A DNA stretch of 64,000 bases from Candidatus Bathyarchaeia archaeon (GCA_038870975.1 JAVZJD010000001.1:992001-1056000), one strand, 5' to 3'; shown: positions 16,556-54,768, numbered from the stretch's first letter. Program-made: numbers and translations. The notes: a model not told the origin generated them from the letters alone.

Positions 16556-16566
16556 AGCTAAGAACA

Positions 16567-35376: not shown

Positions 35377-35934
35377 TTAGTAATGTTGCTCTATAATACT
35401 GTTTCTACTCGCCCCTTCTATATCACTCTCAGCCCTCCGACCAAGAATACATATGAGAGAAACGAGCATCAACAATATTCCACATTCTATAACTACCCCC
35501 TCCCTTCTCAAGCTTAAGTCTGGAAGAGAATTGAGATACCTAAATAGAGGTAGAAAGTCTAAAAAGTTGAAGAGATTATGGATGATCGGTCTACCCCAGA
35601 AAGAGGTTTGAAAGGAGAAGAAACTTGATGTATGTATGATAACCCAGTCTAAATCTGGAAGTATCGAGAAGCCCATTCCAACCTTATACTCCCCCCAGCA
35701 TTTAACAACAATTAAAACGCTTAGGAGAACCATCGCTAGATGGTAAATGATCCAGAATGGATCTTCAAAGAGCGGCGTAGGTGGATGGTAAGTAAACCTA
35801 GCTAATCTATCTAAGACACCGTGGGATATGAAAGCCAAAAAAGCTGTAAGAAAATATCGTAGAGAAATCGGTTCGACTTTCCTTAAAATCTTTTGAATAA
35901 GTACACCCATGACTAAGTGGGTGGGTCCCTGCAA
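35377..35934 (-). CDS. Membrane-bound metal-dependent hydrolase-like protein
   Basis: Hydrophobic. N-terminal TH, SH..LD and LPDLD...H putative metal ligands. Confidence 0.55.
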   Translation of the reverse strand: MQGPTHLVMGVLIQKILRKVEPISLRYFLTAFLAFISHGVLDRLARFTYHPPTPLFEDPFWIIYHLAMVLLSVLIVVKCWGEYKVGMGFSILPDLDWVIIHTSSFFSFQTSFWGRPIIHNLFNFLDFLPLFRYLNSLPDLSLRREGVVIECGILLMLVSLICILGRRAESDIEGASRNSIIEQHY

Positions 35935-35977
35935 CGTTTAAACACCTTTGTTGAAATCTCCTCAGATAGATTAAGGA

Positions 35978-37210
35978 TTAGTAGAGCAATATGAGCCATA
36001 GTGAGCCTTTGGCTGGTTTTATCGAATTTACTTTAATGAAAGGCCCCGGCGTATCTAATGCTACTTTACCGCAGCCTTCAGGTATTTCCAGACGTATAGT
36101 CACGTAGTCTTCAGGGTTTATTAGTGAAGCGGTTTCAAATACCTCTACTAAGACTCTACCATGGTCGGCTCCACTGTGGACCAGTAGAGCTTTTCTCGCA
36201 GACCCAGTCCAATACCATTTCCCCGGCAGCTCTCTCTGGGTTTGTACGAAGACTCTATCTTTAAGAACCCCATAATTTCTCGGGTTAAATATAGAATAGT
36301 CTACGTAAACCGCGTAAATCTCATGGATATATCCCTCTCTCCCGGTGTCTCTCCTAGTCGACCAAGTATCTCTGAAAGACGAGAACAGTATCTTGGGGTA
36401 TCCATCCGGCTCAGTCGTATAATGGGGATGTCCAATCTGCGTAAACACGTCATCCACCATGAGATTTGGCAAGACATCCCCCTCCAACAGGCCTACGACT
36501 GGTATTCCACCATCCGGGTTAAGACCCTTAACATCACTGAGGGGAGGTCCCATGAACATTTTTAAAACCCATTTCCCAAATTCATCAGACTCTGTTATTA
36601 CAGAGATTCGGGGCATTAAAATCAGGTCTAAAACGGCGTTTCCACTACCATGCCAAGCAGCTATTCCATAATCCTCTAATCTTATGTTCTCAAAATCATC
36701 TACATTCCTAATAGATAGGAGCTTTATCTTCTCCCCAGATGGAATTGCGGCTACAGCATCATGTAGATAGCCGTAGGCCCCCATGGGTTTGAATGGAACA
36801 CCATGGTCTCCTACACCTTCTAAAATCCGCTTAAAACTCAACCTATTCCAGTTAGAATCAAACCAGAATACGTATGCTTCACTATCCTGCGTAACAGTCA
36901 CTATAAATTCTTCTCTCACAGGGTTGTACAAGCCTCTAACAGCGTTCATCGTATAGGTTCCAGGGATGATTCCAGACGGTAGAATCTTCTTAACCCTATC
37001 AACGTCTACTGTTAAATCCTTCTCTATAGGTGCAACAGCCCCTTCGCGTTTTAAGCCGACTAGGTCTCTCCACCCAGTGAATAGAAGCCACCTTTCGCCA
37101 GTCGAACTGTTGAATACTATGTAAGGAGTTCCAACACCTCCGGAAAAGTCTGGGAAAACTCTCTTCAACTCTTGAGGTCTAAGTACGGGTACTATCCTTT
37201 TAAAATTCAC
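35978..37210 (-). CDS. Hypothetical protein, possibly beta-propeller glycosidase-like
   Basis: Beta-strand and aromatic rich (GTPYIVF...WLLFTGW, QIGHPHY...KILFSSF). Start set at in-frame GTG 37210 after GGAGGA. The fold is inferred only. Confidence 0.55.
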   Translation of the reverse strand: MNFKRIVPVLRPQELKRVFPDFSGGVGTPYIVFNSSTGERWLLFTGWRDLVGLKREGAVAPIEKDLTVDVDRVKKILPSGIIPGTYTMNAVRGLYNPVREEFIVTVTQDSEAYVFWFDSNWNRLSFKRILEGVGDHGVPFKPMGAYGYLHDAVAAIPSGEKIKLLSIRNVDDFENIRLEDYGIAAWHGSGNAVLDLILMPRISVITESDEFGKWVLKMFMGPPLSDVKGLNPDGGIPVVGLLEGDVLPNLMVDDVFTQIGHPHYTTEPDGYPKILFSSFRDTWSTRRDTGREGYIHEIYAVYVDYSIFNPRNYGVLKDRVFVQTQRELPGKWYWTGSARKALLVHSGADHGRVLVEVFETASLINPEDYVTIRLEIPEGCGKVALDTPGPFIKVNSIKPAKGSLWLILLY

Positions 37211-37377
37211 CGTCAATCCTCCTCCATTACTCGGTAAGACATGTAGAAATTTAAAAGCTTTCAAACCGTTAACACACTATAGGCGTTCTTCTGAAGAATC
37301 GTTCGTTATAAGGAAACGATTTTAAATCCTCAGCTCTACATGGAAAAACTTTAATAGTATTTTTTCTTGATGGAAGA

Positions 37378-38250
37378 TTGAGGAAGATGTATTTACAAAA
37401 CAAGTTTTACAAAATGTCTACTGTTTTAATGTTTATAGCACTTCTATCGTTAATCCATATATGTGAAGCGGAGGAATCTAAGAACATTTACATATACTAT
37501 GATTCATCATACCGTAATTCATGGCTCTCAATTACAGATTCAGATACAATCGTTAAATTCGTGCCAGAAACTCTAGCAAAGTACGGTATATCATGTGAAA
37601 CCGTAGATGCTAAACGGCTCGCCGAAATCGTTTCACATCTTGAAGACGCGCCCAATACAATCATATTAATGTCCATGGATGTAGCCCCAGATACAATTTG
37701 GACTGGTGCACCGGATTCCCCAATACAATTATGGATTGAAGCAGGTGGAACACTCATATGGACTGGCGATTGGGAGTTCTACTACGTCGGGTTTTCCAAT
37801 TATACTAATGTACACCAGCCCTACATTGAAAATATCGTCTTCGGTATGATAACTGTTACAGCGTTTGCTGATAATACGGAGGTGAAACCCACGGAGCTCG
37901 GACGTAAAATCATGCCGAGTTTTGAAAGCTATAGAACAGATAGACCTACTTATGCTTCAATTGCTGAAACCTTTGACTGTGAAATCTATGGACTATCAGA
38001 TGACGGACTCTACGCAGAACCAGTTCTAATAAAAGTCGGTAAGGGAGCTATCGTCAAGATCTGTATGACCGGTGGAGATGTCGATTCTAATACACGGGCT
38101 ATTTTAATATGCGAATTCATCCTAAACAGAGTATTTAACATGGGAGGGGTTAAAATCGAGAGACCATTCCCAGTAATTCCCATAGCTATAGGGGTAGTAA
38201 TAGCTGTGGCTACCGTCGCATTAATAGTACACTTTATTAGGAGACGATAA
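37378..38250 (+). CDS. Secreted, C-terminally membrane-anchored hypothetical protein
   Basis: Signal-peptide-like N-terminus, acidic body (W..AGG.LIW.G, class-I GATase-like appearance), and a C-terminal TM helix ending in RRR. Confidence 0.7.
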   Translation: MRKMYLQNKFYKMSTVLMFIALLSLIHICEAEESKNIYIYYDSSYRNSWLSITDSDTIVKFVPETLAKYGISCETVDAKRLAEIVSHLEDAPNTIILMSMDVAPDTIWTGAPDSPIQLWIEAGGTLIWTGDWEFYYVGFSNYTNVHQPYIENIVFGMITVTAFADNTEVKPTELGRKIMPSFESYRTDRPTYASIAETFDCEIYGLSDDGLYAEPVLIKVGKGAIVKICMTGGDVDSNTRAILICEFILNRVFNMGGVKIERPFPVIPIAIGVVIAVATVALIVHFIRRR

Positions 38251-38252
38251 GC

Positions 38253-39536
38253 TTACCTATCCTCCTCGTATACTTTAAAGCCCATCAGCTTAGCTAGACT
38301 TCTAAGTTCATTCAGCCAATTTCCGTAGAATGTTACTCTATGCCATCCCCACCTCCAGTTTTCAAGTATACGGTCAGCTTTAACTTCTACGGCTAGTTTT
38401 GTTCTACAGGCTCTCTCATCGTCAATATTAGCCACGGCTTTACCAGTATGAATAGTCATAGCTTTCTCAAATGGGTTTACTTGAATCGTTGTTACGTATT
38501 CTTCTAGAGGCATTAGAGACTGTATAGACGCTCCACTTCTATCTTCGGCGTGAGACCTTATGATGTAAGGGTTTACTGGTCCGTTTAGACCGTAGACCAT
38601 GCTCGGAGCTACGCAGTGAGCATATACAATCCACTTCTTAGATAAGTCGAAAACTGGGTCTGATATGAAGCTTGGCTCTCCGGTTAAATATTTAATTATG
38701 AGCATTGCCAGCGTAGAGTTTAAATCCGCCTCGCATGCACCGATTAATCCTTCGTTGTTTAACTGGAAAAACCCTAAACATGGGTAAGCCTCTAGCCTGT
38801 TTGAGTATACTAAAGTTAAGCAGTCTACTGCTATGGCGATGGCTCCCTCCTCCTTTAGAAGTCTTTTCATTGCCAAGTACATTCTAGCCGCTTTAACGAT
38901 TTCTCCTCTACTAGGCTCCATTACTCTCAAGGCCTCACGTATCCACTTCTCAGCCCACTTTTCCGCCTCCCCTATATCAGTTTCGCGATAGTACTGGTTA
39001 AGCTTCTCTGAAGATTCCTTTAAAACTTCAACACCTAAACTACTTTTGATAGCTTCAGAGGTCTTTCCTACATCTCTATCTGTTACAACGATTATCCTTG
39101 ATTTTTTGAGTAATGCTACGACTCTGATCAACTTTAGAGCTTTAACTACATCTTCAAAGTCGGATGATGCTACGGCTAATACAGGTAGTTCCTTATCCTT
39201 AGCCCAGGTGTATGTTGAAATCAGTTCGCCGCTTCCACCATATAAATCGTCTACTAATATCGTAGGTTTACCTGCACCTGCTATAGCATATCCGGCTCCA
39301 ACCCATATGCCAAGCATGTAGACGACGTAACCGTCAACATCGCTTACTTCCTTAATTATCCTCTCTCCATCTTTCGAGCTCATAGCGGTTTTAAAATTGA
39401 CGTCAAAATCTGGTATCTTCTTCTTAAGAAGATCCATAATCTCTTTCTTCCGAGCCTCATAATCATAGCCTTTATAAGGCCAAGTAGGGGCGTCTGAAGA
39501 CGGGTGGGAGAAAACCACGCAAATCCTACAACTCAT
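38253..39536 (-). CDS. L-fucose/L-arabinose isomerase-like protein
   Basis: AVDCL, YPCLG...LN, ACEAD, F..DP, AHC, CRTKL and GWHRV.FYG. Confidence 0.72.
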   Translation of the reverse strand: MSCRICVVFSHPSSDAPTWPYKGYDYEARKKEIMDLLKKKIPDFDVNFKTAMSSKDGERIIKEVSDVDGYVVYMLGIWVGAGYAIAGAGKPTILVDDLYGGSGELISTYTWAKDKELPVLAVASSDFEDVVKALKLIRVVALLKKSRIIVVTDRDVGKTSEAIKSSLGVEVLKESSEKLNQYYRETDIGEAEKWAEKWIREALRVMEPSRGEIVKAARMYLAMKRLLKEEGAIAIAVDCLTLVYSNRLEAYPCLGFFQLNNEGLIGACEADLNSTLAMLIIKYLTGEPSFISDPVFDLSKKWIVYAHCVAPSMVYGLNGPVNPYIIRSHAEDRSGASIQSLMPLEEYVTTIQVNPFEKAMTIHTGKAVANIDDERACRTKLAVEVKADRILENWRWGWHRVTFYGNWLNELRSLAKLMGFKVYEEDR

Positions 39537-39680: not shown

Positions 39681-40442
39681 ATGATAAAAATCGGTTGTGC
39701 TGCCTACTCTTACAGAGATTATCTTAAAGATGGAAGAATGAGTTATGAAGATTTTATAGAAGAAGCTTACCGTATGGGACTGGATGGTGTGGAGTTGACT
39801 CTATACTGGCTTCCATCTAAAGACCCATCATACCTTAGAAAGCTTAAGAGGTTGGCGTTTTCACGTGGGCTACCAATATCTTGTGCTGGAATCTCTACGA
39901 ACTTCTGTACTCCAGATAGTTCTGAGAGAGACCGTATGATTAGAGCCGTAGAGGAAGGATTGAATATTGCTCGCGAATTGGGGGCATCAGCCCTTAGAGT
40001 TTTCGGAGGTTATACGCCTAGAGGATATACAGAGGCTGAAGCGACTAACTGGACAATAGAAGCGCTCAAGACTTGTGTAAGCTATGCTGAGGAAAAAGGC
40101 GTTGTAATAGCCTTAGAAAATCATGGGGGGATTACGGCTAGAGCAGATAATGTTGTAAGAATTGTGAAGGGTGTAGACTCACCGTGGCTTGGTGTGAACT
40201 TAGACTTGGGCAACTACACTGAGTCTACGTATGAGGATATTGCTAAAACAATTCCATATACTGTCCACATTCATGGGAAAATAAGTACAGCCAAGGGGGT
40301 TTCAGTCGACTATGAGAGAGTAAAGGGAATGCTTGTAAAAGGAGGCTACAATGGCTTCATCTCCATTGAGTATGAAGAAGAGGAGGACCCTAAGACAGCC
40401 ATACCGAAGTTTGCAAAATACCTGCTTAACCTCTTTAAATGA
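39681..40442 (+). CDS. Sugar phosphate isomerase/epimerase (xylose isomerase-like TIM barrel, IolE/AP_endonuc_2 family)
   Basis: G.DGVEL, LENHG, NLDLGN, H.H.K and GY.G.ISIEYE metal motifs. Confidence 0.88.
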   Translation: MIKIGCAAYSYRDYLKDGRMSYEDFIEEAYRMGLDGVELTLYWLPSKDPSYLRKLKRLAFSRGLPISCAGISTNFCTPDSSERDRMIRAVEEGLNIARELGASALRVFGGYTPRGYTEAEATNWTIEALKTCVSYAEEKGVVIALENHGGITARADNVVRIVKGVDSPWLGVNLDLGNYTESTYEDIAKTIPYTVHIHGKISTAKGVSVDYERVKGMLVKGGYNGFISIEYEEEEDPKTAIPKFAKYLLNLFK

Positions 40443-40467
40443 AGATTAAGGGTGAGGTGGCTTAAGT

Positions 40468-41517
40468 ATGGGTAATGTAGTTAAAGTAGGTATATCCGGT
40501 CTTGGAAGAAGCGGTTGGAGTATTCACGCTAATACGCTTGAGAAATGCCCCAACTTATACAAGATAGTAGCTGTATCCGACCCTATCGAGGAGAGACGTC
40601 GTGAAGCTGTAAGTAGATTCGGCTGCAGAGCATACCCCAACTTTGAACAGCTTATAAAAGATGATGAAGTAGAGCTTGTAGTCGTAGCTACTCCAAGCTT
40701 TCTACATGCCCCACAAACCATAGAGGCTTTAAAAGCTGGTAAAAACGTGGTATGTGAAAAACCCATGGCTACAAGCCTCTCCGAAGCCGATGCTATGATA
40801 AATGCCGCTAAGGAATCCAACAGAATACTGACGATTTTCCAAAACATGAGGTATGCGCCAGACTTTCTAAAAGTTAGAGAGGTAGTCCGTTCAGGAATAC
40901 TGGGTCACATAGTTCTCATAAAAATCTATTGGCATTTCTTCGGTAGACGCTGGGATTGGCAGACTTTAAAGAGATTCGGAGGAGGAGAACTCAACAATAA
41001 CGCTTCACACGCCATAGATCAAGCTCTCCAACTTATTGGAGATGGGGAACCCGAAGTCCTATTCTGCGACCTTCAGAGGACTTTAACCCTGGGTGATGCC
41101 GAAGACCACGTGAAAATAACCTTGGGAGTTCGTGGGTCTCCTACAATCGCCGATATAGAAGTTACCCGTGCATGTGCCTATCCTCAGAACACATGGTTGA
41201 TAATGGGAACTCAGGGAGGGCTTACAGGGACATCCACATCATTAAGATGGAAGTACTTCAACCCTGCAGACCTTCCCCCGAGGAAGGTTGAAACGGAGCC
41301 GACGCCAGATAGAAGCTACAACTGGGAGGAAATCCCCTGGAAGGAGGAAACGTGGAATTTAAGTAGAGACCAGAAGAGGGGTGAAATGCTCTTCTATGAA
41401 GGCTTGTATAGAACATTGCGTGAGGGAGCGCCCTTAAGTATTACGCCGCAGAGTGTTCGAAGAGTGATGTGGGTAATAGAAAAATGCCGCGAATACTGTG
41501 AAAAACGTTCAACGTAA
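40468..41517 (+). CDS. Gfo/Idh/MocA-family NAD(P)-dependent oxidoreductase
   Basis: GLGRSG, ATP..LH, CEKP and GGG.L.N...H.ID. Confidence 0.9.
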   Translation: MGNVVKVGISGLGRSGWSIHANTLEKCPNLYKIVAVSDPIEERRREAVSRFGCRAYPNFEQLIKDDEVELVVVATPSFLHAPQTIEALKAGKNVVCEKPMATSLSEADAMINAAKESNRILTIFQNMRYAPDFLKVREVVRSGILGHIVLIKIYWHFFGRRWDWQTLKRFGGGELNNNASHAIDQALQLIGDGEPEVLFCDLQRTLTLGDAEDHVKITLGVRGSPTIADIEVTRACAYPQNTWLIMGTQGGLTGTSTSLRWKYFNPADLPPRKVETEPTPDRSYNWEEIPWKEETWNLSRDQKRGEMLFYEGLYRTLREGAPLSITPQSVRRVMWVIEKCREYCEKRST

Positions 41518-42359: not shown

Positions 42360-43082
42360 AGGGCTAACCTCTAGTTGGCTGGTTTAAACTTGCCGACTCT
42401 CTTTGGTCCACTTACACGCCTAAACTTTCCTGTCCTTCTAACCATATATCTGCCCAATTATTGGTAAGTGAAGTGTTTTATAAAAGTGTTTGCTAGAAAA
42501 ACCTCTAACTTCTGCTGGAATGAATGGGCAAAGTTTAGATTCGATAATCCTCAATTTTTGGAGTATCTTCTTGGAGGATATTCTCTTACTAAAGTTGAGA
42601 CTTAAGAATGAGTAGATACTCTGCATACTGAAAGAATGATGTTATGTAGATTTTTACGGTGATTTCCATAAAGAAAGCAATCATCCTCCTAAGAGAAGAT
42701 GTTTACCAGAAGCTTAAGGCTGAGAATGGCTTTAGAAGGCTCTAAGATCCTCTTCCGAGAGCGTGAAGAGCTTGGAGAAGCTTCAGAACGGGGAGCTGTT
42801 GAGTATCTTATGCGTAAAACGGTTTGCATCGCTCAGTTATTGGAAAACTTCCGCTTCCAACGCTTAAGATAGTTACCCATATGGATATTGTTGTTAATTT
42901 TCAACTTTATACTCGCTACCCATTTCTTTCACAGATTTAAATCTTCGTAGTTATATATGTTTGAACGCAGGATTACGGCTTATATACCCTCATCTAACTT
43001 TTCCTGAAATTAGGTATCATGGTAAGCTTTATCAAAAGAAAACTTTAAACGTATGCAATCATTCATATGGCGGTGTAAGCAT

Positions 43083-44420
43083 ATGGGCGTTAAAATCACT
43101 ATTATAGGGGCAGGTAGTCTGGTTTTTACTCCTAATATTCTCGCAGACCTTACGAAATCCAATGTCCTCGCTGGCTCCAACGTCTGTCTCATGGATATAG
43201 ATGAGAAGAGGCTAAACTTAATGACCAAGCTTGCCGATAGAATAATGCGTGAAGAGAAGTCGGATATTGCCGTTAACGCAACCACTGATAGAGCTGAAGC
43301 TTTGAGAAACGCTGACTACGTAATTATCTCAATATCTGTTGGTACTGATGTTGAAAGATTCGACGTTGAAATACCGAAGAAGTACGGTTTATATGCATCA
43401 GTGGGGGATACAACTGGACCGCAGGGTTTTGCAAGAGCGCTTAGACACATCCCGGTTATGGTCGACATCGCTAAGGATATTGAGAGAATCTGTCCAAGCG
43501 CTTTTGTACTCAACGTGACAAATCCAATGACCGCGTTATGTACAGCTATGCTTAAAACGTCGAAGATAAACCTCATCGGACTTTGCGTTGGAATATACAT
43601 AGCGAAAAACTTCATAGCTAGACTTCTAGATCTAGACTCTGAAACAATAAGCGTAATCGCGGGTGGAATAAACCACTTTACGTGGATAAAGGAGATTTTC
43701 ATTAGAGGTGAGGACGTTTATCCTAAGTTTCACGAAGTTTGGGAGAATGCTAAGAAGTCGTACAGTAGACTTGAGATGCTTGAAAAATTCAGAGGCCACT
43801 ACATATCCCTACTCCTGTACGATAAATTCGGACTATTTCCATCCCCTTCAGACTCTCACATAGCAGAATTTTTACCATACTTCATAAGGGAGGATAAAGC
43901 ATACGGTTCCATCTACGGTTTAACACTATACCCGCAAGGGACAATATACGACCCTAAGTGGCGTGAACAGGCTTGGTCACGTCTAGTTGAATGGGCAACT
44001 GGCACAGCTCCACTAGATGAGCTATTCGCGAGAACATTCACAGAAGAAACGCTTGTAATCAGAGTACTTGAAAGTCTATCGTCTAAACGTAACGACTTCT
44101 ACGAGGCGGTTAATATCCCAAATATGGGGTCTATTCCAGATATTCCAAGTAACGCTGTAGTTGAGGTTCCAGGGGTTGTAGGTAATATAGGGGTAAAGCC
44201 TGTCCAAGTTGGCTCACTTCCCAAGTCAATCACACAGCTTCTCAGACAGCAACTTACACACATAGATTTAACGGTTGACGCCGCTTTAACCGGAGACAGT
44301 AAACTTGCATTACAAGCACTGTTAATGCATCCTTCAATACCAAATTTAGAGGTTGCTGAAAACATACTTAACGATTTAATAAGATACGAATCTAAGTATC
44401 TTCCACAATTTAAAGATTAA
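43083..44420 (+). CDS. GH4 NAD+/Mn2+-dependent glycoside hydrolase
   Basis: IIGAGS, GDT.GP.G..RALR.IP, NVTNP, GLC, GINHF and VVEVP. Start at in-frame ATG 43083. Confidence 0.9.
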   Translation: MGVKITIIGAGSLVFTPNILADLTKSNVLAGSNVCLMDIDEKRLNLMTKLADRIMREEKSDIAVNATTDRAEALRNADYVIISISVGTDVERFDVEIPKKYGLYASVGDTTGPQGFARALRHIPVMVDIAKDIERICPSAFVLNVTNPMTALCTAMLKTSKINLIGLCVGIYIAKNFIARLLDLDSETISVIAGGINHFTWIKEIFIRGEDVYPKFHEVWENAKKSYSRLEMLEKFRGHYISLLLYDKFGLFPSPSDSHIAEFLPYFIREDKAYGSIYGLTLYPQGTIYDPKWREQAWSRLVEWATGTAPLDELFARTFTEETLVIRVLESLSSKRNDFYEAVNIPNMGSIPDIPSNAVVEVPGVVGNIGVKPVQVGSLPKSITQLLRQQLTHIDLTVDAALTGDSKLALQALLMHPSIPNLEVAENILNDLIRYESKYLPQFKD

Positions 44421-45619
44421 CGGATTATGGGGTAATCTGCTAAGCGCCTCCAAACATCCAACATCACTTTTATACTCTCCCACGGTGTATCTGGAAATAT
44501 TTGATCTATTGCTGATAATATGAATCCTCCTCCTGGTGCAAGCGTTTCAATAGCGTCTACTACTGCTTTCTCAATCTCTTCCCTAGACCACAGCTTTAGC
44601 GTGACTGAAGAGTTTATACCACCCCATATGCATATCCTATCTCCAATTTCTCTTTTCACTTGTAATAATTTTGCTCCTCCTTGAACGGGGTCTACACCGT
44701 AGAGGACATCTACTCCCGCCTCTTTGAAGAAGTCTAAGAGAGGCATTATACCCATAGACATTATGTAGCAGAATTTAAGCCCATGTCTATGAACATAATC
44801 CGCCAGTTTCTTAACATAAGGTAGTATGAATTTTCTGTAGAGTTTCGGCGGCCAAAAGTCCGCATTCTCATACCATCCACGGTGAACAATTAGATCTACT
44901 GCTCCAGACTCTATGGCTAATCTAATATACCTGATATCCCATTCAAATATTACATCTAACACTCTTTGGATAAACTCTGGATTTGTATAAGCAGCTCTAA
45001 TGGTGTTTTCGAGCCCGCAGAGCCAATGTAGTGCATCTGCGCCGACAACTCCACCTTCAACTCCTTCTTCATAAGCCATACCGGCTTCAACTAAAACACC
45101 ATGCTTATCTGCGAAACTTCGAACTTCATTAGCCTTCTCAAAGAAGATTTTAAGCTCTTTATCCGAAGGTTCTGTAAGTAAACATGATAATGCATCTATA
45201 TCCTCCTCCTTTTCAACAAGAAACTTTAAAGAACGAGCCTTCGGGATAACAAAATCCGTAAAAAGTGGCACATCGTCACCATGTGGCCAGTCTGGTGTTT
45301 GACGTACAATGCGCTTAAGGACGCCCTTAGCTGTGTGGTATTCTTTTATAATCAGCGCATCTCTCTCCCCAGGTGGATGAATCTTACTTACCTTAGTTTT
45401 GACCTCTGGGTTAAGTGAAACTGGTACTTTTAAAGTTATAGTATCATCTATTCCAAGTTTTAGTAGTCTGAGGACGCGTTCAAGCTCACTATGCCAACGG
45501 TCATTCTCATCTACTAGAAACGGGCGCTCCCACCACTTAAGACATAATGGAACGTGGTCTGGTTCATCTAAATTTATGGCTGTTAAAAGCCGCTCCCTCG
45601 AATTCAACTCCTCTCTCAA
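44417..45619 (-). CDS. Uroporphyrinogen decarboxylase/MtaA-fold protein (paralogue 4)
   Basis: SRER....EPDHVP, GVDP.QG, IWGGIN and LAPGGGFILS. TTG start at 45619 after GGAGGTG. Confidence 0.8.
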   Translation of the reverse strand: MREELNSRERLLTAINLDEPDHVPLCLKWWERPFLVDENDRWHSELERVLRLLKLGIDDTITLKVPVSLNPEVKTKVSKIHPPGERDALIIKEYHTAKGVLKRIVRQTPDWPHGDDVPLFTDFVIPKARSLKFLVEKEEDIDALSCLLTEPSDKELKIFFEKANEVRSFADKHGVLVEAGMAYEEGVEGGVVGADALHWLCGLENTIRAAYTNPEFIQRVLDVIFEWDIRYIRLAIESGAVDLIVHRGWYENADFWPPKLYRKFILPYVKKLADYVHRHGLKFCYIMSMGIMPLLDFFKEAGVDVLYGVDPVQGGAKLLQVKREIGDRICIWGGINSSVTLKLWSREEIEKAVVDAIETLAPGGGFILSAIDQIFPDTPWESIKVMLDVWRRLADYPIIR

Positions 45620-45729
45620 TTGAAACACCTCCAACTGGATTTGGGAAAGACCAGTTTAAAGCTTTACGAATCCACATACGACGTAGACTATGTAATATTC
45701 CTAATACAAACTCGGCCGTTCCATAAAGG

Positions 45730-47163
45730 TCACTGTTTAATTAGAGATTCACTTGCCTCTTTAATTATTCGGTCTATTTCTCTTTCCACACTTAAGTCTA
45801 GAGGCTCAACCTCATGCTTTGACAAGATTCTATTGACTGTTTCCCTAATCTCCCTCAATTTAGCTGGAGCGTCCTTAGACTTCCATGCCTCCCAGTTCAG
45901 TCTATCGAAGATTTTTGGAAACCAGAATTCACTTCTTATGTGTAGTATAGTGTGTCTCTGAGAGAGAAAGCTTCCACCTATACCTACTCTTTTTATAACA
46001 TCTAAGGCTATGGTTTCACTCTCAACATTGAAACCCTTTAGTAAGCGTTTAACGTAACTGGCGACTTCATCATCTACTACTAGTTGCTCTAAGCTACCGC
46101 CGACGTCCGCGCCTATGATACCTTGATGCCCACTAAGCTCTGCTCCTGCAAAAGCACCTAGAGTCATAGTTGCAGCCTTCTCAACGCCAGATTGGAAATC
46201 AACACTTTTAGAGTCTGTTAAACCCACGTTAACATGTACAGGTAAACCGTAGTATAGACCTATTTGAACCATAGCTACCGCCATTAAACCCTGTTCAGGA
46301 GAACCAAAGGATATGTTTCCAGTTCTCTGATCCATTATGTGGGGTATACCGCCATAGAGGATTGGCGTTCCTGGACCTAAAACCTCCGCAATAACTATGC
46401 CAGCTAGTATTTCGGCGTTCTCAAGGGCTAGCGTTCCAGCCAATGTTGCAGGCCCCGTCGCGCTCGCCATAACCATAGGTGCAAAGCAAACTGGGATTTT
46501 ACGTTCAGCAAAAAGTTTTAAAATAGGTAGGCTGTGAGGGCTGAATTTTAATGGGCTTATAGGCTCGAAAAAACCTAGGGATAGGGGTTTCTTGCCAGGC
46601 GCTTCTCCCGTTATAGTGGTCCACATTTTAAGTATGTATTCAGCCGATTGAACTGAGTATATCCAAGCGAAAAAAGGCTTTGAAGTATGCTTGATGAGCG
46701 TTGCATACATATATACGTCGGCAATTTGCAAAGGTACATCCTGAGGTACGAATAAGGCACCTACTATGTCTATATTTTCCAACGCGTCTCCGAGTTTAAC
46801 AGCTTTTACAGTATCTTCTAGGGTTGCAATTCTTCTATCGCTTGTTAAAGGGTCTACGACGTTCATCATACCTCCACTAGATAGGACTTTGAACTTTCCA
46901 TCGCCAAATGTTACGTTTCTACCGCTCCGTGAGTATACTGTGAAGCTTTTAGACGCTTTCTTAACCATTTCAACGATTAAGCTCTCTGGAAGTTTAACGG
47001 TCGAAGTCTTCCAATCTACTTCACAGCCCACGTTTTTAAGCGCGTTAACTACTTCATCGTTTGGAACTTGAACCCCTACTTCTTCCAAGATGTTTAAAGA
47101 AGCCTCATGTATGGATTCAACATCTACCCTCGATAGTATTTTAAGCCTCAAATTGGGCACCAC
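45730..47163 (-). CDS. MttB/MtgB-family (trimethylamine methyltransferase superfamily) methyltransferase, pyrrolysine-free
   Basis: IHEASL.ILEEVG, PISPL, ATGPATLAG, FGSPE, Y.LP...G.TDSK..D.Q.G.EK and EQLVVDDE. No in-frame TAG. Confidence 0.92.
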   Translation of the reverse strand: MVPNLRLKILSRVDVESIHEASLNILEEVGVQVPNDEVVNALKNVGCEVDWKTSTVKLPESLIVEMVKKASKSFTVYSRSGRNVTFGDGKFKVLSSGGMMNVVDPLTSDRRIATLEDTVKAVKLGDALENIDIVGALFVPQDVPLQIADVYMYATLIKHTSKPFFAWIYSVQSAEYILKMWTTITGEAPGKKPLSLGFFEPISPLKFSPHSLPILKLFAERKIPVCFAPMVMASATGPATLAGTLALENAEILAGIVIAEVLGPGTPILYGGIPHIMDQRTGNISFGSPEQGLMAVAMVQIGLYYGLPVHVNVGLTDSKSVDFQSGVEKAATMTLGAFAGAELSGHQGIIGADVGGSLEQLVVDDEVASYVKRLLKGFNVESETIALDVIKRVGIGGSFLSQRHTILHIRSEFWFPKIFDRLNWEAWKSKDAPAKLREIRETVNRILSKHEVEPLDLSVEREIDRIIKEASESLIKQ

Positions 47164-47175
47164 ATATACGCTTCT

Positions 47176-48492
47176 TTAACGCTTGGTTTTAAACTGAGGC
47201 AGAAGAGGTGCGTGAACCTCTAGAAGTTCGTCAAGCGTTTTCTTAGCCGCTTCAACGCTATGTACAACCGGGTCTATCAGCAGGGCTTGTAATGCCTTTT
47301 CATAAGACCCTTCATACGCAGCTTCAACCGATAACCTTTGAATGACTGCTTGTGTATAGCACAATGCATCTATCCCAGTCGGGAGACTTCCAATATGTAT
47401 CGGATGTATACCACTACCGTCGACTACGGCAGGCACCTCTACCACAGTATCTAATGGTAGATTTGTCACCACACCCTTGTTCGGAACATTAACAGCATAC
47501 TCGAAATACCGTCTGTTTGAAACGATAGCTTTGATTATGTTCACAGCCTGTCCTCTTTCACCTCTGATTAGTTCTGAAGAGCTATAGAGTTCTACAGACA
47601 ATTTATCCGTAGCTAAATCATCCACTGTTTTACGAATATTTTCAGACCATTTTTCAACGGCGCTAAGCCAGTTTTCCCCTCTCTCCCTCTCTGGGACAAT
47701 ATCCCAAGCATAAGATACATATTCCCCTACATGCCCATCTGATGGAGATGGATAATATCCATACGTTAGGCATAAGATCCTAGACAGAGGCTCCCCAGCC
47801 AGTATGTCTCGCTTAACGTCATCCGCAGTTTTAAGCCTATCAATAAGAATAGGATAAGCATTTTCACCAGAATCTTTAAACCAAAGCTTCAGAATCCATG
47901 TAAAGTGGTTCAATCCAGCGGCCAGAGCTTCAATCTGACGGCCTAAAGCTGTAGATAGCCACTCCATTCTGCCGTAGATTCCGGGGCAGAGTCCAACAGC
48001 TTTAAGCTTCGTATAACGGTTTATTGCATATGCTACTCTCGCCTCTGGGTTTGAATAGTTCATAACTAAAGCATTGGGACATAGGTCTTCAACATCACGG
48101 CATATTTCTAATACCAATGGAACTACACGTAGAGTATGTGCCAACCCTCCTGGACCACCACATTCGCCGATAACCTGTTTAATGCCATATTTATGGGGTA
48201 TTTGAAAGTCCAGCCACCACCTCTTCATCCTCTCTTTCTCAACAGCTATTATTACAAAGTCTGAACCACTAAGTCCATCTTTAGTTTTCGTGAAAGATTC
48301 GATCTTTAAATTAGCTTTAAAGTACTCATTAAACCGCTCTGCAACCTTAGCCATAGTCTTAAGCTTCCCCTCGTCTATATCTATCAATGCAATAGTGCCA
48401 CCGTGAAGCTCTTCCGTGCTCACGATATCGCGTAATGTTTCAAGACCAAAGGAAGCACTACCAGCACCAACTAAAGATATCTTAACCTCCAT
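47176..48492 (-). CDS. GH4 NAD+/Mn2+-dependent glycoside hydrolase
   Basis: VGAGS, GE.GGPGG....LR, NYSNP, GLC, GLNHF and VVEVP. Start at ATG 48492 after GGAGG. Confidence 0.9.
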   Translation of the reverse strand: MEVKISLVGAGSASFGLETLRDIVSTEELHGGTIALIDIDEGKLKTMAKVAERFNEYFKANLKIESFTKTKDGLSGSDFVIIAVEKERMKRWWLDFQIPHKYGIKQVIGECGGPGGLAHTLRVVPLVLEICRDVEDLCPNALVMNYSNPEARVAYAINRYTKLKAVGLCPGIYGRMEWLSTALGRQIEALAAGLNHFTWILKLWFKDSGENAYPILIDRLKTADDVKRDILAGEPLSRILCLTYGYYPSPSDGHVGEYVSYAWDIVPERERGENWLSAVEKWSENIRKTVDDLATDKLSVELYSSSELIRGERGQAVNIIKAIVSNRRYFEYAVNVPNKGVVTNLPLDTVVEVPAVVDGSGIHPIHIGSLPTGIDALCYTQAVIQRLSVEAAYEGSYEKALQALLIDPVVHSVEAAKKTLDELLEVHAPLLPQFKTKR

Positions 48493-48695
48493 AAAAGTGC
48501 CTCCACACTTAGAAAAACCCTTGAAATATTTAAGTTTACATGCGATGAAATAGACTTTTGAGAGATGTATAGAATCCTCCAACGCCGTAATCTTCTAAAA
48601 ACTGAACATATCCTAGTGTAATTTAGTGTCGCATCCAAGGCCCCCTCTAATGGAACCTTAAAAAGAAAAAAGAGGAATCGTTCCCACTGCTTGGT

Positions 48696-50696
48696 TTAGA
48701 ATGGTATGAAGAACCTTACCACGCCTATTGGATGGGCCATAACGTTTACTAAAGCTAAACCAGCTAGAAATCCAGCGACAAATGGAATGCCATAATTCTC
48801 GTACAATTTACTCCCACCTACTTTTAACGTTATCCACTTAGCTATCCAGGCGAATACAAAGGCGTTCCAGCTCCCCCACCAAGCGATACCAACGCTTGGA
48901 GCCATTGCAAAGCCGAGTGGATGTAATGGCCACCATATGAATCTAGCTCTAAGCAGAGATAAGATTACTGTGATCAATCCACCTACGAACATTACTCCAA
49001 AGACGGTGTTCGCCGCCCCTCCGAAGACGTATCTTTCAATGGAGCTATCCCACATGTATTCCATAGAGCATGTACCCCAAACCGTCACACGACTTGTGCC
49101 AAGTAGATAGTAGATCCACACTCTTGCACATAGCATCACGGGGATTGCTATGAGGGATGATATAACTAGTAGTAGAAAGCTATTACGTATATTGACGTTT
49201 GTTAACTGTCCCATCTTTAGAACGCTCATGGTTGTATGTGCTCCGTTAACAGGACCATTGGGTACTACATTCCATCCACATACGATGAATGCATGAGCCA
49301 TGAACCACTCAGTAGAATATTCTGAGGGTGCCGTAGGCCATATTAAGCGTAGCGGCCAGCTCATCCATACTGCTTTCTCATGAACAAAGGGGCATCCGGC
49401 GATACCGAGAGCATAAGTATCTGTTATTGAGTGGAGAAACGTCACCATTAGCCCTACTAGAGCTACGGCGATGGTTATCCCGGAGAAGCATTGATAGGCA
49501 ATCATAAATACTGCAGACATTAGGATCAACAGGTATATTGTTCTATAGCTAAATACTTCACCATTCGAGGGTCTACCATGAATAGCTTCTTTAAACGTAT
49601 CAGCTACATATGTTCTTGAATGCCACATCACCATAAGTGCTATAGCTACTATTCCACCCATAGATATATAAGCCCAGTAGAACGGCGGAGTCCAGTAAAG
49701 TGCCTGATCGTAGATTGCTCTACATCCACCACCCGTTGTAAGAAGTCCAGTGTGGTAGCCTAAAACATAGGCCGCTTGATCAAGTATTATCATTAAAATC
49801 GTGAAGAACGTGAAGCTGAACAGTATGTCTAGTGGTGCCAGAAATAGTATTGCATGCGCCAACGGGTCTTTCGTAAACCTGCCCCAGTGGACTATTGACT
49901 GCATAAGTGGGTCGGTGGCTGGTAGACAAACGCATCCTACGGCAGTGGTATTAACTCTGTAACCGAATATGTCTGGCCACCATGGGAAGAGATATGTGAG
50001 GAGAATCTGCACCTCTATTAGGAATCCTACTATGAAGCCTATGATGTAGGGTCTGATGCTTCTTCTCTCAGTCCTCTCCGCCTGTATGAATTCAACAGTT
50101 CCATAAGTAGCTAGTACATGAGGAAACGGTACTCTCTCAACATCTATCCACCTACGTCGCAATAGTAGCATGAGGCTTGATGTAAAGAACATAAACGTGT
50201 ACATGTATAGTGTCCAGAATAGTATAGTTGGAGCCCAAGCCCCCCAATTTACTGGCATTCCACCGGGTATTATTTCTCTAACGACGTCGTATGGAGGCAT
50301 CCACCACCAACTCTCCATGATAGTTCTAAGAGGCTCAGGTGAGTATAAGATAGGCATTACGTGTGCCACTGGATGTAACGCGAAAGTAACCATGTCTTGA
50401 AATCCATAGTATGACATAACCAATCCTATTATGTATATCGAGACCAAGGTTGGAACGCTAACCTCTCGAGTTCTTTTTAAAGGATACATTAGAAGCAATA
50501 GGAATACTGGAGCAATAGGTAAAGCCGTTGTTCTGGCGTATATACCCCACGTGAAGTGGCACATTAAGCCCAGGCTTGTGATATTGCAGAGAGCCATATC
50601 GATTGTTCCGACAATCGATAGAATCAACGATAGTAGTGGTATTAAAATCCAGTGTTTACTTTCGAATTCCAACTCTCCCCTAGAAGGCATAACCAA
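48696..50696 (-). CDS. DUF6785/OPT-like polytopic membrane protein, putative transporter (paralogue 3)
   Basis: RRRWIDVERVPFP, PWWPD, RFIWWPLHPLG and LKVGGSKLYENYGIP. C-terminus RFFIPF resembles paralogue 1. Confidence 0.7.
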   Translation of the reverse strand: MVMPSRGELEFESKHWILIPLLSLILSIVGTIDMALCNITSLGLMCHFTWGIYARTTALPIAPVFLLLLMYPLKRTREVSVPTLVSIYIIGLVMSYYGFQDMVTFALHPVAHVMPILYSPEPLRTIMESWWWMPPYDVVREIIPGGMPVNWGAWAPTILFWTLYMYTFMFFTSSLMLLLRRRWIDVERVPFPHVLATYGTVEFIQAERTERRSIRPYIIGFIVGFLIEVQILLTYLFPWWPDIFGYRVNTTAVGCVCLPATDPLMQSIVHWGRFTKDPLAHAILFLAPLDILFSFTFFTILMIILDQAAYVLGYHTGLLTTGGGCRAIYDQALYWTPPFYWAYISMGGIVAIALMVMWHSRTYVADTFKEAIHGRPSNGEVFSYRTIYLLILMSAVFMIAYQCFSGITIAVALVGLMVTFLHSITDTYALGIAGCPFVHEKAVWMSWPLRLIWPTAPSEYSTEWFMAHAFIVCGWNVVPNGPVNGAHTTMSVLKMGQLTNVNIRNSFLLLVISSLIAIPVMLCARVWIYYLLGTSRVTVWGTCSMEYMWDSSIERYVFGGAANTVFGVMFVGGLITVILSLLRARFIWWPLHPLGFAMAPSVGIAWWGSWNAFVFAWIAKWITLKVGGSKLYENYGIPFVAGFLAGLALVNVMAHPIGVVRFFIPF

Positions 50697-50783
50697 CTAT
50701 TAGTCCATGTGTATATATAAGCATTTTCTCGGATGTTTAGAAGCTCATGTCATTTAACCATTACCTACGAAGTCAAAGGAGGA

Positions 50784-51860
50784 TTAAAATATGTTGCCTT
50801 TTACAGGATACTTTCCATAAATCGTCAATGTCTTAGTAATTGTCATAAATGCATCTTCAAGCAAGTCTACTGGAGCGTCTTCAGTCATTCCTATGATAAC
50901 CCCATCCCCAGGGGCTATCTCCTCCAAAAGTTTAATCGTGTACTTTTCAATCACTTTAACACCGTAGTGTAGAATCGTCTCTGGAAAATTAACCCATATT
51001 ATAAACTTGTTATTCCAACATTCTTTAGCCTCTTTAAGCGGTAAATCGCCCATAGGTGGAGGAGTGAAAGCCTCTACAATGTCTATGTTCATTGTTGCAA
51101 TGTGGTATTTCAACTTCTTCAGCAATCCATCCATATGTACCGATAGCATCTTATTCTTAGCGTGGAGTATATCTGCGAACTTCTCAAGTAAAGGTATATA
51201 GTACGTTTCAAAAATCTTCGGGCTCATAACTAAGCCCGTAATCTGGTCCCCACACCATACGAATTCAGCCGGAGAATTGGCTATTATACGATATGTCTCT
51301 TCCTGCCTCTCAGCCATAATATGTATTAAATCTTCAATCCTCTCCCTATTTCTATAAAACTCTTTACAGAGTCTTTCTAAACCCATATAATGAACCCATA
51401 ATTTGCTAAAAGGCGTAGGATCAGCATTAGCAGTTAAAATACCACTATTTCCTACTTTCTCATCGAGTTCTACAAAATATCCATAATCAGGTTTATATAC
51501 AGCGTCTTCCTCTATGAATCTTATAACTCTATAATCAGATGGTTCTTTAAACGGGTATTCTACTATCCAGTTTTCACCAGCTTCAGGTCTTAAACCAGTT
51601 CTAATACGCATAGACATTGAGCCTACGGGTGTACTGTAAGTCCTATGCACAATATTTCCAATCCTTCTCTCCTCTACGTGTACATTTGGATGTTCAACTC
51701 TATAAACTGGTATCCAGGCGTACAGAATACCCATACCCATGCTTCTAAGTCTTTCTTCAGCAGATGGGCTTATCCTAGCGATAGACCTATATGGAACAAA
51801 AGGAATATACTCAGGCTTACCACGGTGTAAAATCGCCATGATATTCTCTCTAATATTCAT
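50784..51860 (-). CDS. Uroporphyrinogen decarboxylase/MtaA-fold protein (paralogue 5)
   Basis: TPVGS, VWCGD, HMDG, EAFTPPPMGD, W.NFPE and G.TED. Close paralogue of 5359-6414. Confidence 0.75.
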   Translation of the reverse strand: MNIRENIMAILHRGKPEYIPFVPYRSIARISPSAEERLRSMGMGILYAWIPVYRVEHPNVHVEERRIGNIVHRTYSTPVGSMSMRIRTGLRPEAGENWIVEYPFKEPSDYRVIRFIEEDAVYKPDYGYFVELDEKVGNSGILTANADPTPFSKLWVHYMGLERLCKEFYRNRERIEDLIHIMAERQEETYRIIANSPAEFVWCGDQITGLVMSPKIFETYYIPLLEKFADILHAKNKMLSVHMDGLLKKLKYHIATMNIDIVEAFTPPPMGDLPLKEAKECWNNKFIIWVNFPETILHYGVKVIEKYTIKLLEEIAPGDGVIIGMTEDAPVDLLEDAFMTITKTLTIYGKYPVKGNIF

Positions 51861-51918
51861 CTACTAACACCAGAAAGGGAGATATTTTATATAGGAATAA
51901 GGAGATTGTTTCTAAATT

Positions 51919-53337
51919 ATGAGTTTTACCTTTAAACCTAGGCTCAACATTGGAGACATCGTTCCTAAGCGGCTCATAGAAACTATGCATGAGAGGGCTT
52001 TAGAAGTCCTCGAAAAGGTAGGGATCAAAGTCACAAATAAGCTTCTCATAAGACGGATAATAGAACGTAACGGGTTTAAACTAGACAGGGAATGGGTGAA
52101 AATTAAAAGTAGCCTAGTTGAAGACTTAGTCGTAGAAGTTAGACGGAAACGAAAGCATAGTATGATGCGTAGTTTAAGTGAGGAAGAGCTTATACTTTCA
52201 CCTGGGTATCCAGGTTGTTCTTGGATAGTAGACTTAGAGACAGATACCATAAAACCTTTAACAACTGAAAAACTCGTAGAAGCCACTAAGCTTACGGATT
52301 CGCTTTACGAGTGGGGCGTTAGAGGAGGGGCTCCAGGGGCTCCCGTAGATGTACCGCCTAAACTGCGGAGGGTTGCGCAGTGTTTAATAGGTTATACGTA
52401 TAGCCGTTCAGCTGGCCCGGCTCCATTTGAAAGTTACGAGGAGGCCGTCTATATTAAGCGTATGGCTGATGTTATGGGTCATGGTTTCGGGGTGGACGTG
52501 TACGTAATAAGCCCCCTCCGTCTTGAAGGCATATCTTTAGATAGGGCTATACCGTTCTTAGAGAATGGGGAATGTGATTGGGTGGGAATAACGTCTATGC
52601 CGCTTGCAGGTGCTACGGCACCAGTATATCCAGTGGGGGCATTTATCCAAGGTATAAGCGAGGCTTTAGGTGGATACGCCATACTTCACGAAGCCTACCC
52701 AGACATACCTATGGGCTTCAGTGTAAATGCCTACCACTTCGATATGCGCCATGGTAACATAGTATTCGGGTCTCCTGAGCAGACCCTAATGGACTTATTT
52801 AGCATAGTGTTAAACATGTTTTACGGTGGAGGACTGCACGGGGTTAGATCTTTCAGAACAGTTGCAAAACAAGTAGACATACAGGCGCAAGTTGAAAAAG
52901 CCTCTTCAGCCACGGTTGGAGTATTAACAGGACCTGGCGCATTTATCCATGCTGGCCTACTGAGTATAGATGAGATCTTTAGCCCCGTACAATTGATCAT
53001 AGACTGCGAATTGGCTAAGTATTTAACTAGGCTTGCTAAAGGTTTAGAATTTACGGAAGATCAAATAGAACTGTCAATTGAAACAATAGCCAGGTGTGCT
53101 CTCAAGGGTCAGTATTTAACAGATGAAACGACTCTGAAAGATTACAGGAGGATATATTGGACTCCCGAAATATTCGACTATTCCCTACTTCACACATACA
53201 AACCAGGTCCAGATATAATAGCGAAAGCCAAGAAAATATGTAAGGAGAAGATCCAAACACATAGGTATCAGCTTGAAGACGAAAGAAGGAAAAAACTAGA
53301 AGAAATATATCGAGAGGCTGTTAAAACGCTATCTTAG
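51919..53337 (+). CDS. MttB/MtgB-family methyltransferase, pyrrolysine-free, divergent
   Basis: MHERALEVLEKVG, ISPLR, AGATAP, FGSPE, D.QA..EK and QLIID.E. No in-frame TAG. Confidence 0.85.
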   Translation: MSFTFKPRLNIGDIVPKRLIETMHERALEVLEKVGIKVTNKLLIRRIIERNGFKLDREWVKIKSSLVEDLVVEVRRKRKHSMMRSLSEEELILSPGYPGCSWIVDLETDTIKPLTTEKLVEATKLTDSLYEWGVRGGAPGAPVDVPPKLRRVAQCLIGYTYSRSAGPAPFESYEEAVYIKRMADVMGHGFGVDVYVISPLRLEGISLDRAIPFLENGECDWVGITSMPLAGATAPVYPVGAFIQGISEALGGYAILHEAYPDIPMGFSVNAYHFDMRHGNIVFGSPEQTLMDLFSIVLNMFYGGGLHGVRSFRTVAKQVDIQAQVEKASSATVGVLTGPGAFIHAGLLSIDEIFSPVQLIIDCELAKYLTRLAKGLEFTEDQIELSIETIARCALKGQYLTDETTLKDYRRIYWTPEIFDYSLLHTYKPGPDIIAKAKKICKEKIQTHRYQLEDERRKKLEEIYREAVKTLS

Positions 53338-54396: not shown

Positions 54397-54768
54397 ATGG
54401 GTCATATATGGGTGAATGTCAAACTCTTAAATCCTAAAACGGGCGGTGAAATTGAGACTAAAGCGCTTATCGATACAAGTGCAACGTATACCGTTGTCCC
54501 AGTGGAGATCGCTAGAAAACTGGGTCTTGAAAACCTTGGCTTTGTAGACGTGAAAACAGCTAGCGGTAGTGAAAGGCTTTGGGAGTCGGAGGTTAGAATA
54601 AGAATGTTTGATAGAGAGAGATCGTCACCAATACTCGTAAGCGAGAAGATGGATGTTCTATTGATTGGCGTCGTAACCTTAGAAATACTCAGGCTGAAAG
54701 TGGATCCGACGACGGGTATAGTCGAAGAGCTTCCACTCCTTCTATACACGGTCTACATAAGAGGATAG
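54397..54768 (+). CDS. Retroviral-like (clan AA) aspartic protease family protein
   Basis: ALIDTSATYTVVP..IA..LGL, TASG and LIG..TLE.L.L.VDP. Confidence 0.8.
   Translation: MGHIWVNVKLLNPKTGGEIETKALIDTSATYTVVPVEIARKLGLENLGFVDVKTASGSERLWESEVRIRMFDRERSSPILVSEKMDVLLIGVVTLEILRLKVDPTTGIVEELPLLLYTVYIRG

Follow-up and report, generated by a model that had tools for sequence, protein, structure and literature searches.

Why would an archaeon keep its MttB-type candidate methyltransferase genes among glycosidases and a membrane transporter? The question is raised by an island of seven contiguous genes at positions 43083-53337 of a 64,000-nucleotide stretch of DNA, here called the window, from a Candidatus Bathyarchaeia archaeon of hot springs (GCA_038870975.1 JAVZJD010000001.1:992001-1056000). 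The genome, 1.85 Mb in two contigs and 92.9% complete, carries a reverse gyrase gene, which indicates a thermophile, and the window itself holds the archaeal markers Rpb7, a thermosome gene and TYW2. We propose that the island probably specifies a route, not described before, by which methyl groups are taken off sugar-linked compounds without oxygen. That it is a catabolic unit for a methylated glycoside is a reading to which we give about an even chance. The seven genes are as follows, and an upstream flank (39681-41517) that was also considered is described further below.

43083-44420, plus strand: GH4a, a glycoside hydrolase family 4 (GH4) NAD+/metal-dependent glycosidase, convergent on the minus-strand genes (Pfam Glyco_hydro_4 185 bits, 4C 130 bits)
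44417-45634, minus strand: UroD_44417 (UroD/MtaA-fold protein A; Pfam URO-D 84 bits over residues 207-397)
45730-47163, minus strand: MttB1, non-pyrrolysine MttB superfamily, candidate methyl-donor:corrinoid methyltransferase (Pfam MTTB 299 bits)
47176-48492, minus strand: GH4b, family 4 glycosidase, 12 nucleotides upstream of MttB1 (Pfam match)
48696-50696, minus strand: DUF6785+DUF6784, polytopic membrane protein, OPT/Yellow-Stripe-like (Pfam match)
50784-51860, minus strand: UroD_50784 (UroD/MtaA-fold protein B; Pfam 39 bits, fold backed by a structure model)
51919-53337, plus strand: MttB2, divergent non-pyrrolysine MttB superfamily, divergently transcribed (Pfam MTTB 142 bits)

A preliminary description of this DNA had named the same families in the same places, and all seven open reading frames (ORFs) were recovered with agreeing Pfam assignments; small start-codon corrections were needed in two only. 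The longest GH4a ORF begins at 43053, and the ATG at 43083 gives 445 residues, as in the orthologues. The longest GH4b ORF begins at 48582, and the ATG at 48492, which to judge from the orthologues is likely the true start, gives 438 residues compared with their 439. The intergenic gaps are, in order, -4, 95, 12, 113, 87 and 58 nucleotides (the 113 becomes 203 with the corrected GH4b start), and the 12 nucleotides reported earlier between GH4b and MttB1 proved correct when recomputed. The two MttB genes are non-pyrrolysine forms: neither has an in-frame stop, and their products score 395 and 134 bits with the pyrrolysine-type model TIGR02369, against a cut-off of 525.

Conservation of the island and recurrence of its gene families

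MttB matches are present in all five other genomes of the genus. One of them (G002) has the whole block in the same order, a second (G003) keeps it up to a contig end, with MttB2 opening another contig, and two more (G005 and G001) have parts of it. Two sister-genus genomes, 90% and 95% complete, have no MttB match, and among the relatives searched the island is confined to one genus. Within that genus the block is not static: in G002 and G003 an extra DUF6785 gene of about 2.3 kb lies between a 142-residue ORF and GH4a, and it is cleanly absent here, with no remnant at window positions 42360-43052, so a transporter paralogue has been either inserted or deleted.

Beyond the genus, MttB1 belongs to a large clade (45-57% identity) with members in Anaerolineae/Caldilineae, Phycisphaerae, Pirellulales, Verrucomicrobiota, Acidobacteriota, Hydrogenedentota, Clostridia and Bathyarchaeia. 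We surveyed the 10-kb flanks of 80 MttB1-clade loci, with family models derived from this archaeon's paralogues and with unbiased clustering; the MttB gene itself was recovered in 78 of the 80. GH4 genes lie near the MttB1-clade gene in 12 of 80 loci, 10 of which are outside the genus, and UroD-like genes likewise in 12 of 80. Taken together, enzymes that oxidise sugar hydroxyls (GH4 and Gfo/Idh/MocA) are found nearby in about half of the loci. ROK kinases, DegT aminotransferases, sugar transporters of the ABC, TRAP and MFS types, GH38 and sulfatases also recur. In three Anaerolineae-type loci, including L099 and L104, the gene immediately upstream of the MttB1-like one codes for GH38, and a GH38 alpha-mannosidase also occurs in the window, in a second module of like design at 7928-14791 (DUF6785 importer, PA14, GH38, UroD-like). 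Three bacterial loci replicate the island's family set (percentages are identities to the archaeal proteins):

Caldilineae (L050): UroD (38% to UroD_44417), PfkB kinase, GH4, binding protein, two permeases, GH4 (41% to GH4b), MttB (46% to MttB1), MttB (37% to MttB2), BadF-type sugar kinase, GH4
Clostridia (L046): GH4, ABC importer, MttB (49%), MttB2-like, Zn-dehydrogenase, GH4, ROK
Chloroflexota (L132): GH4, GntR, MttB, MttB2-like (38%), GH4, Gfo/Idh/MocA, UroD

In such bacteria the MttB2-like gene stands in tandem with another MttB gene, which is MttB1-like in L046 and L050, and the two are flanked by GH4. The MttB2 clade is small (155 representatives at E<=1e-30). Its type occurs in 2 of 301 Chloroflexota genomes, as does the UroD_44417 type, and the one genome that has both has them at the same locus. 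In a 6.5-Mb Phycisphaerales chromosome and a 2.1-Mb Actinomycetota genome, GH4 is single-copy and adjoins an MttB1-like gene in each (L051 and L071). Eight replica loci were searched for a cobalamin riboswitch and none was found. The Rfam model PYLIS_3 does score above its gathering threshold inside amber-free, non-pyrrolysine MttB genes (L043 8266-8367 and 10937-11051; L071 2820-2926), matches that are probably conserved coding sequence rather than a functional element.

The arrangement is more than chance, because it is syntenic in the genus and its family set recurs across phyla. The preliminary description had linked MttB to GH4 with no characterised pathway to lean on, and in the neighbourhood survey that link turns up again in unrelated phyla. 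Its remark that each enzyme type occurs twice around one transporter holds as a statement about gene order and loses much of its weight against the genome as a whole. Searches of the six-frame ORF set returned about 21 full-length DUF6785/6784 genes, about 21 UroD-like, 9 GH4, 23 Gfo/Idh/MocA and 11 xylose-isomerase-like TIM-barrel genes; three of the DUF6785 and six of the UroD-like genes are in the window. MttB genes number two, both in this island. With so many paralogues, the transporter and the UroD-like proteins look like generic building blocks of the archaeon's glycan loci, and the distinctive part of the island is the MttB pair.

Such crowding means that chance neighbours must be frequent in 1.85 Mb, and the occurrence of the island in a single genus among the relatives searched would also fit an accidental gene order. 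It is nonetheless very improbable, and already disfavoured, that the order is an accident of a genome full of GH4, UroD-like and DUF6785 paralogues or that the MttBs act on free osmolyte betaines. The combination recurs in Chloroflexota, Clostridia, Actinomycetota and Planctomycetota, single-GH4 genomes included, and the betaine half of this explanation meets the active-site evidence given next.

Predicted functions of the island's proteins

MttB1 and MttB2 are both members of the MttB superfamily (PF06253) and are 31% identical to each other. MttB1 aligns end to end with MtgB of Desulfitobacterium hafniense (9YCE/2QNE) at 251 bits, and MttB2 matches MtgB at 93 bits. In MtgB, according to a 2026 study, Y97 and F356 make cation-pi contacts with the ammonium group while R312 and H348 bind the carboxylate, and R312 is reported to be conserved in all characterised members (PMC13080624). 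At the positions of Y97, F356, R312 and H348, MttB1 has Gly98, Asp353, His310 and His346, where the alignment of Gly98 is moderately reliable and no aromatic residue lies within residues 92-104; MttB2 has Tyr, Asp351, His307 and His344. Neither protein thus carries the MtgB-type betaine ligand set. G98, N312, H346 and D353 never vary in the MttB1 clade, whose members have His, Tyr or Gly at the R312 position; the MttB2 clade keeps only the Asp, in 32 of 36 sequences. In neither clade is the R312 equivalent ever Arg. With the betaine-binding residues replaced, acidic betaines are unlikely substrates on the evidence of these alignments, and the case that the preliminary description had set against itself, that the MttBs act only on free betaines, is unlikely too: the binding Arg and the aromatics are gone, apart from the Tyr that MttB2 itself retains. 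The betaine residues are missing as well from MttB homologues that related archaea encode next to a corrinoid protein; what their loss speaks to is the substrate, not the use of cobalamin. A His-His-Asp metal site in the MttB pocket was considered and rejected, as the R312-equivalent His is found in just 13 of 26 MttB1-clade sequences and the MttB2 clade keeps neither His.

Why two different MttB subunits? When MttB binds MttC, the corrinoid protein docks against the C-terminal loop of the other subunit of the dimer (PMC9842639), which provides a rationale for such a pair. MttB1 and MttB2 probably form a heterodimer in which the well-conserved MttB1 would be catalytic and MttB2 more like a scaffold. 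They should not be confused with the bathyarchaeal O-demethylase that also goes by the name MtgB (Yu et al. 2023), which is of about 300 residues, was described as without homology to known methyltransferases and is not of the same family.

In UroD_50784, by alignment only, His242-x-Asp244 and a distal Glu-Asp fall at the zinc-ligand positions (motifs VHMDG and TED), and His242 is invariant in alignment A5. Its structure model (pLDDT 84.5) matches only UroD and the Methanosarcina mazei methyltransferase fold (4AY7/4AY8), with TM-scores of 0.56-0.66. Neither UroD-like protein has the MtaA/MtbA-type His-x-Cys ... Cys zinc site, and both are far below the NCBIfam cut-offs. S-methyltransferases of the UroD fold use His-Cys-Cys, and O-methyltransferases swap the Cys ligands for carboxylates (PMC10418091); the predicted UroD_50784 site looks like the type reported for the latter, and most UroD-like paralogues of the genome share the His-x-Asp pattern. 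UroD_44417 has no His at these positions and is without an MtaA-type metal site.

Both GH4 proteins match both GH4 Pfam domains, and GH4b keeps the Cys and His metal/catalytic motifs, with NYSNP, VGLCPG and AGLNH where 5C3M has NFTNP, VGLCNV and AGLNH. GH4a and GH4b are about equally distant from all solved GH4 enzymes (about 160 bits or less), and both score below every NCBIfam equivalog cut-off. The AlphaFold2 model of the DUF6785/6784 protein (pTM 0.81) has a sole significant PDB match, barley YS1 (7WST/7WSR; TM-score 0.59-0.68, E 4e-8, probability 1.00), from which we take the modelled protein to share the OPT/Yellow-Stripe-like fold.

Two further genes stand just upstream of the island:

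39681-40442, plus strand: xylose-isomerase-like TIM barrel (Pfam AP_endonuc_2 122 bits), in the same position in G002 and G003
40468-41517, plus strand: Gfo/Idh/MocA NAD-dependent sugar oxidoreductase (Pfam), syntenic in the genus

The first of these is possibly part of the same unit. The PDB neighbours of the second include DgpA-type glycoside 3-oxidases. It is not an orthologue of the Gfo/Idh/MocA proteins encoded beside bacterial MttB genes (30% identity, over the Rossmann half only), whose own best solved relatives are glycoside-ring dehydrogenases (160 bits) and DgpA. Those bacterial proteins score about 80 bits to inositol dehydrogenases, compared with 160 bits to the glycoside dehydrogenases, and O-methyl-inositol glycosides as the specific substrate accordingly find no support. 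Just upstream of this gene pair, window positions 35377-39536 hold four ORFs of 185, 428, 290 and 427 residues without a Pfam match, at least two of which are kept at the same place in the genus. On the other side, between the island and a gene for an FAD-dependent oxidoreductase, a small ORF at 54397-54768 encodes a domain of the retroviral aspartyl protease type (gag-asp_proteas, 34 bits). At the start of the window, positions 1-3594 hold a cluster of four genes for a [NiFe] hydrogenase of the soluble group 3 type: a 4Fe-4S protein, an FAD/NAD-binding subunit, and the small and the large subunit.

Candidate corrinoid partners, a proposed route and its alternatives

If methyl groups are moved by these proteins, a corrinoid protein and an activase should be encoded somewhere. 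The window has neither, as the preliminary description had said, and its suggestion that the partners lie elsewhere was confirmed by a search of the genome, which found both on the other contig. There is one RamA-type activase, two MtrH homologues, a CdhD-containing acetyl-CoA decarbonylase/synthase (ACDS)/Wood-Ljungdahl cluster and a sole corrinoid protein:

Contig 2, 689883-690530: MtxC-type corrinoid protein, 215 residues, B12-binding_2 and B12-binding domains, DLHDIG (DxHxxG) motif

The corrinoid gene lies between a radical-SAM aminomutase-like gene and GH116, near GH29 and a DUF6785 gene. No Pterin_bind protein was found in the genome, and the surroundings of RamA are uninformative, as are those of the UroD paralogue that comes closest to the bacterial protein encoded beside a corrinoid gene.

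In the comparison with 40 relatives (genomes G000-G040), 16 genomes without RamA have 0-2 UroD matches, and 22 of the 25 with RamA have 5-38; every same-order genome with the corrinoid protein and RamA has 13-38, even where there is no MttB. This pattern suggests that one corrinoid carrier serves many UroD-fold (O-methyltransferase) enzymes. In each of five MttB1-clade carrier genomes examined, one or two stand-alone corrinoid proteins are encoded far from the MttB locus, and tests for RamA in 10 MttB1-clade genomes were positive in 9. Among Planctomycetota, RamA occurs in 54 of 151 genomes, namely in 12 of 12 that are MttB-positive and 42 of 139 others, though these genomes are not phylogenetically independent, and for the MttB1 clade itself, which just 3 of the 151 have, the co-occurrence statistics are weak. 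The excess of RamA (54) over MttB homologues (12) in that sample also implies that other corrinoid methyltransferase systems must be common in the phylum.

Two loci show a corrinoid gene in such company. In the archaeal locus L043, home of the MttB1 homologue that is nearest among those from outside the genus (56%), the genes run corrinoid, MttB, UroD, MttB1-like, with PfkB, SIS and a sugar-type ABC ATPase on the flanks. In a Caldilineae genome, the sole corrinoid gene (L125, positions 1-17000 of the contig) sits in a co-directional run of UroD, FGGY kinase, TIM barrel, UroD, corrinoid, galactokinase, Gfo/Idh/MocA, two TIM barrels and GH4. Another gene, DUF2099 ('methanogenesis marker 8'), occurs in the window 28 nucleotides from a UroD-like gene (33308-35306), and in a related genome its homologue stands beside an MttB-corrinoid pair (L026 8028-11408); DUF2099 may belong to these methyl-transfer systems.

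A route can be drawn from these parts. The DUF6785 OPT/Yellow-Stripe-like protein would import a methylated glycoside, and the two GH4 enzymes, assigned to their family by their domains, would cleave its glycosidic bond or bonds. The MttB1/MttB2 pair and the O-type UroD_50784 would then pass the methyl group or groups to the single MtxC-type corrinoid protein, kept reduced by the single RamA-type activase, and MtrH or another UroD-fold protein would hand the methyl on, via tetrahydromethanopterin (H4MPT), to the archaeal Wood-Ljungdahl/ACDS pathway, whose genes are present. We infer the division of labour between the MttB and UroD-fold proteins. The methyl group could be on a sugar oxygen, a methoxylated aglycone, a cyclitol or a sugar nitrogen.

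Several observations weigh against this reading. Gfo/Idh/MocA, rather than GH4, is the commonest neighbour of the MttB1 clade: of 78 loci, 39 have it within 10 kb and 28 have it immediately adjacent. Of the 80 loci, only one has a corrinoid gene inside the same 10-kb distance. Orthologues of the archaeon's corrinoid protein (63-92% identical) and RamA are found across its order and in several other families, MttB-free genomes included, so they are not dedicated partners of the island. In UroD_44417 the His-x-Cys ... Cys of MtaA (4AY7) is replaced by Tyr-x-Met ... Asp, which leaves the MtaA positions without metal ligands. Conservation is poor in what may be the active site of the MttB2 clade, no equivalog model points to a substrate, and every characterised MttB-superfamily enzyme acts on an amine and not an ether (PMC13080624).

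One way to accommodate several of these points is to suppose that no methyl group is moved at all, and that the MttB- and UroD-fold barrels have been recruited as corrinoid-independent lyases, isomerases or hydratases acting on keto-sugars made by GH4 and Gfo/Idh/MocA. The frequency of Gfo/Idh/MocA next to the MttB1 clade and its kinship with glycoside-ring dehydrogenases and DgpA, the rarity of corrinoid genes nearby, the loss of the betaine-binding residues and the missing metal site of UroD_44417 would all be accounted for. Yet MttB1 resembles MtgB over its full length, its closest homologue sits in a corrinoid operon (L043), nearly all carrier genomes tested have RamA and a stand-alone corrinoid protein, the expansion of UroD tracks these two genes, and MttBs that do adjoin a corrinoid gene in archaea are equally without the betaine residues. 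We therefore regard this explanation, the main rival, as unlikely, if a serious one.

It is also possible that the MttB pair demethylates nitrogen, taking an amino sugar that is N-methylated or quaternary, or else a non-acidic methylamine that a glycoside has released, while GH4 and the oxidoreductases deal with the sugar. The amine substrates of all characterised family members invite this idea, and the invariant Asp (D353 in MttB1, D351 in MttB2), which stands where MtgB has its cation-pi Phe, could form a pair with ammonium. DegT-type sugar aminotransferases occur in 7 of 78 loci, and L043 has its SIS and PfkB genes. But none of the aromatic cage residues survives, DegT is found at a minority of the loci, no gene points to an abundant natural glycoside with such a group, and the UroD_50784 site looks O-type; we consider N-demethylation distinctly improbable.

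Returning to the methylated-glycoside reading, the nearness of sugar-oxidising enzymes to the MttB1 clade in about half of the loci leads us to speculate that oxidation next to the methylated position readies a methyl ether for attack by Co(I). In its fullest form, MttB1/MttB2 would be the first MttB-fold demethylase of an aliphatic sugar or cyclitol methyl ether, acting on a keto-sugar from GH4 or Gfo/Idh/MocA in which oxidation has turned a poor alkoxide leaving group into an enolate, and would be embedded in a hub-and-spoke network where about 20 UroD-fold O-methyltransferases, encoded next to glycosidases and OPT-like importers, deliver to a single corrinoid protein and the Wood-Ljungdahl pathway. 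We hold this version tentatively and think it rather unlikely to be right in full.

Known systems and what the island would mean

Among the nearest studied systems is MtgB/MtgC/MtgA of D. hafniense, a glycine betaine:corrinoid:tetrahydrofolate methyltransferase system (2QNE, 9YCE; PMC13080624). MttB1 is a full-length, non-pyrrolysine homologue of MtgB, and the archaeal genome has both the DxHxxG MtxC-type corrinoid protein and RamA. Unlike MtgB, MttB1 replaces three of the four ligands (Y97 by Gly, R312 by His, F356 by Asp), and the island has no adjacent corrinoid or methyltransferase 2 (MT2) gene, is set among GH4 and sugar genes, and has two diverged MttB paralogues that travel together. 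The three-component O-demethylases known from acetogens and archaea (Odm/Vdm/Mtv, and MtoABCD of Methermicoccus) combine UroD-fold methyltransferases 1 and 2 (MT1 and MT2) with a corrinoid protein and a RACE/RamA activase (PMC8630106). The archaeon has UroD-fold proteins, a corrinoid protein and an activase, the His/carboxylate site of UroD_50784 (as aligned) and an H4MPT/ACDS sink; it differs in that its components are scattered, about 21 UroD paralogues share one corrinoid protein, MttBs are added, and the neighbours are glycosidases and importers, not genes for aromatic compounds.

Comparison of the other proteins is similarly mixed. The island's GH4s share both Pfam domains, and GH4b the Cys/His motifs, with the solved enzymes (Thermotoga maritima AglA 1OBB and BglT 1UP6, Bacillus subtilis LplD 3FEF and GlvA 1U8X), from all of which they differ in their about equal distance and in scoring below the NCBIfam cut-offs. 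The transporter resembles barley Yellow Stripe 1/OPT in its modelled structure, whereas identity is 12-14% and its family is archaeal and bacterial and here associated with glycosidases. The Gfo/Idh/MocA and TIM-barrel pair upstream recalls the DgpA/DgpBC 3-keto-glycoside routes (7XR9, 9M37), although the similarity is at family level only (76-94 bits across two Gfo/Idh/MocA queries) and no MttB or corrinoid component is known there.

Methyl ethers are common on the sugars of plant, algal and microbial glycans, and the only enzymatic route removing them that we know of needs oxygen. Reisky and colleagues are said to have described in 2018 a cytochrome P450 that demethylates 6-O-methyl-D-galactose in marine Bacteroidetes. 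There, as proposed here, a methyl ether is removed from a sugar during glycan catabolism, but that reaction depends on oxygen and releases formaldehyde, while the island's system would be anaerobic and would conserve the methyl group. Searches of open-access full text yielded no paper about DUF6785, no link drawn between MttB and either GH4 or methylated sugars, and no description of an anaerobic sugar demethylase. On our reading, the island would bring the corrinoid-dependent kind of methyltransferase system to bear on glycosides.

If that reading is right, a route through cobalamin would retain the methyl group in the form of acetyl-CoA carbon or reducing power, and the MttB superfamily would reach beyond quaternary amines. 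Concrete gene sets would be on offer for biochemistry, and the Caldilineae run at L125 is a compact bacterial candidate for sugar-linked corrinoid methyl transfer. Such a system would also explain why MttB, UroD-fold, corrinoid and RamA genes occur in non-methanogenic glycan degraders among the Bathyarchaeia, Chloroflexota, Planctomycetota and Verrucomicrobiota.

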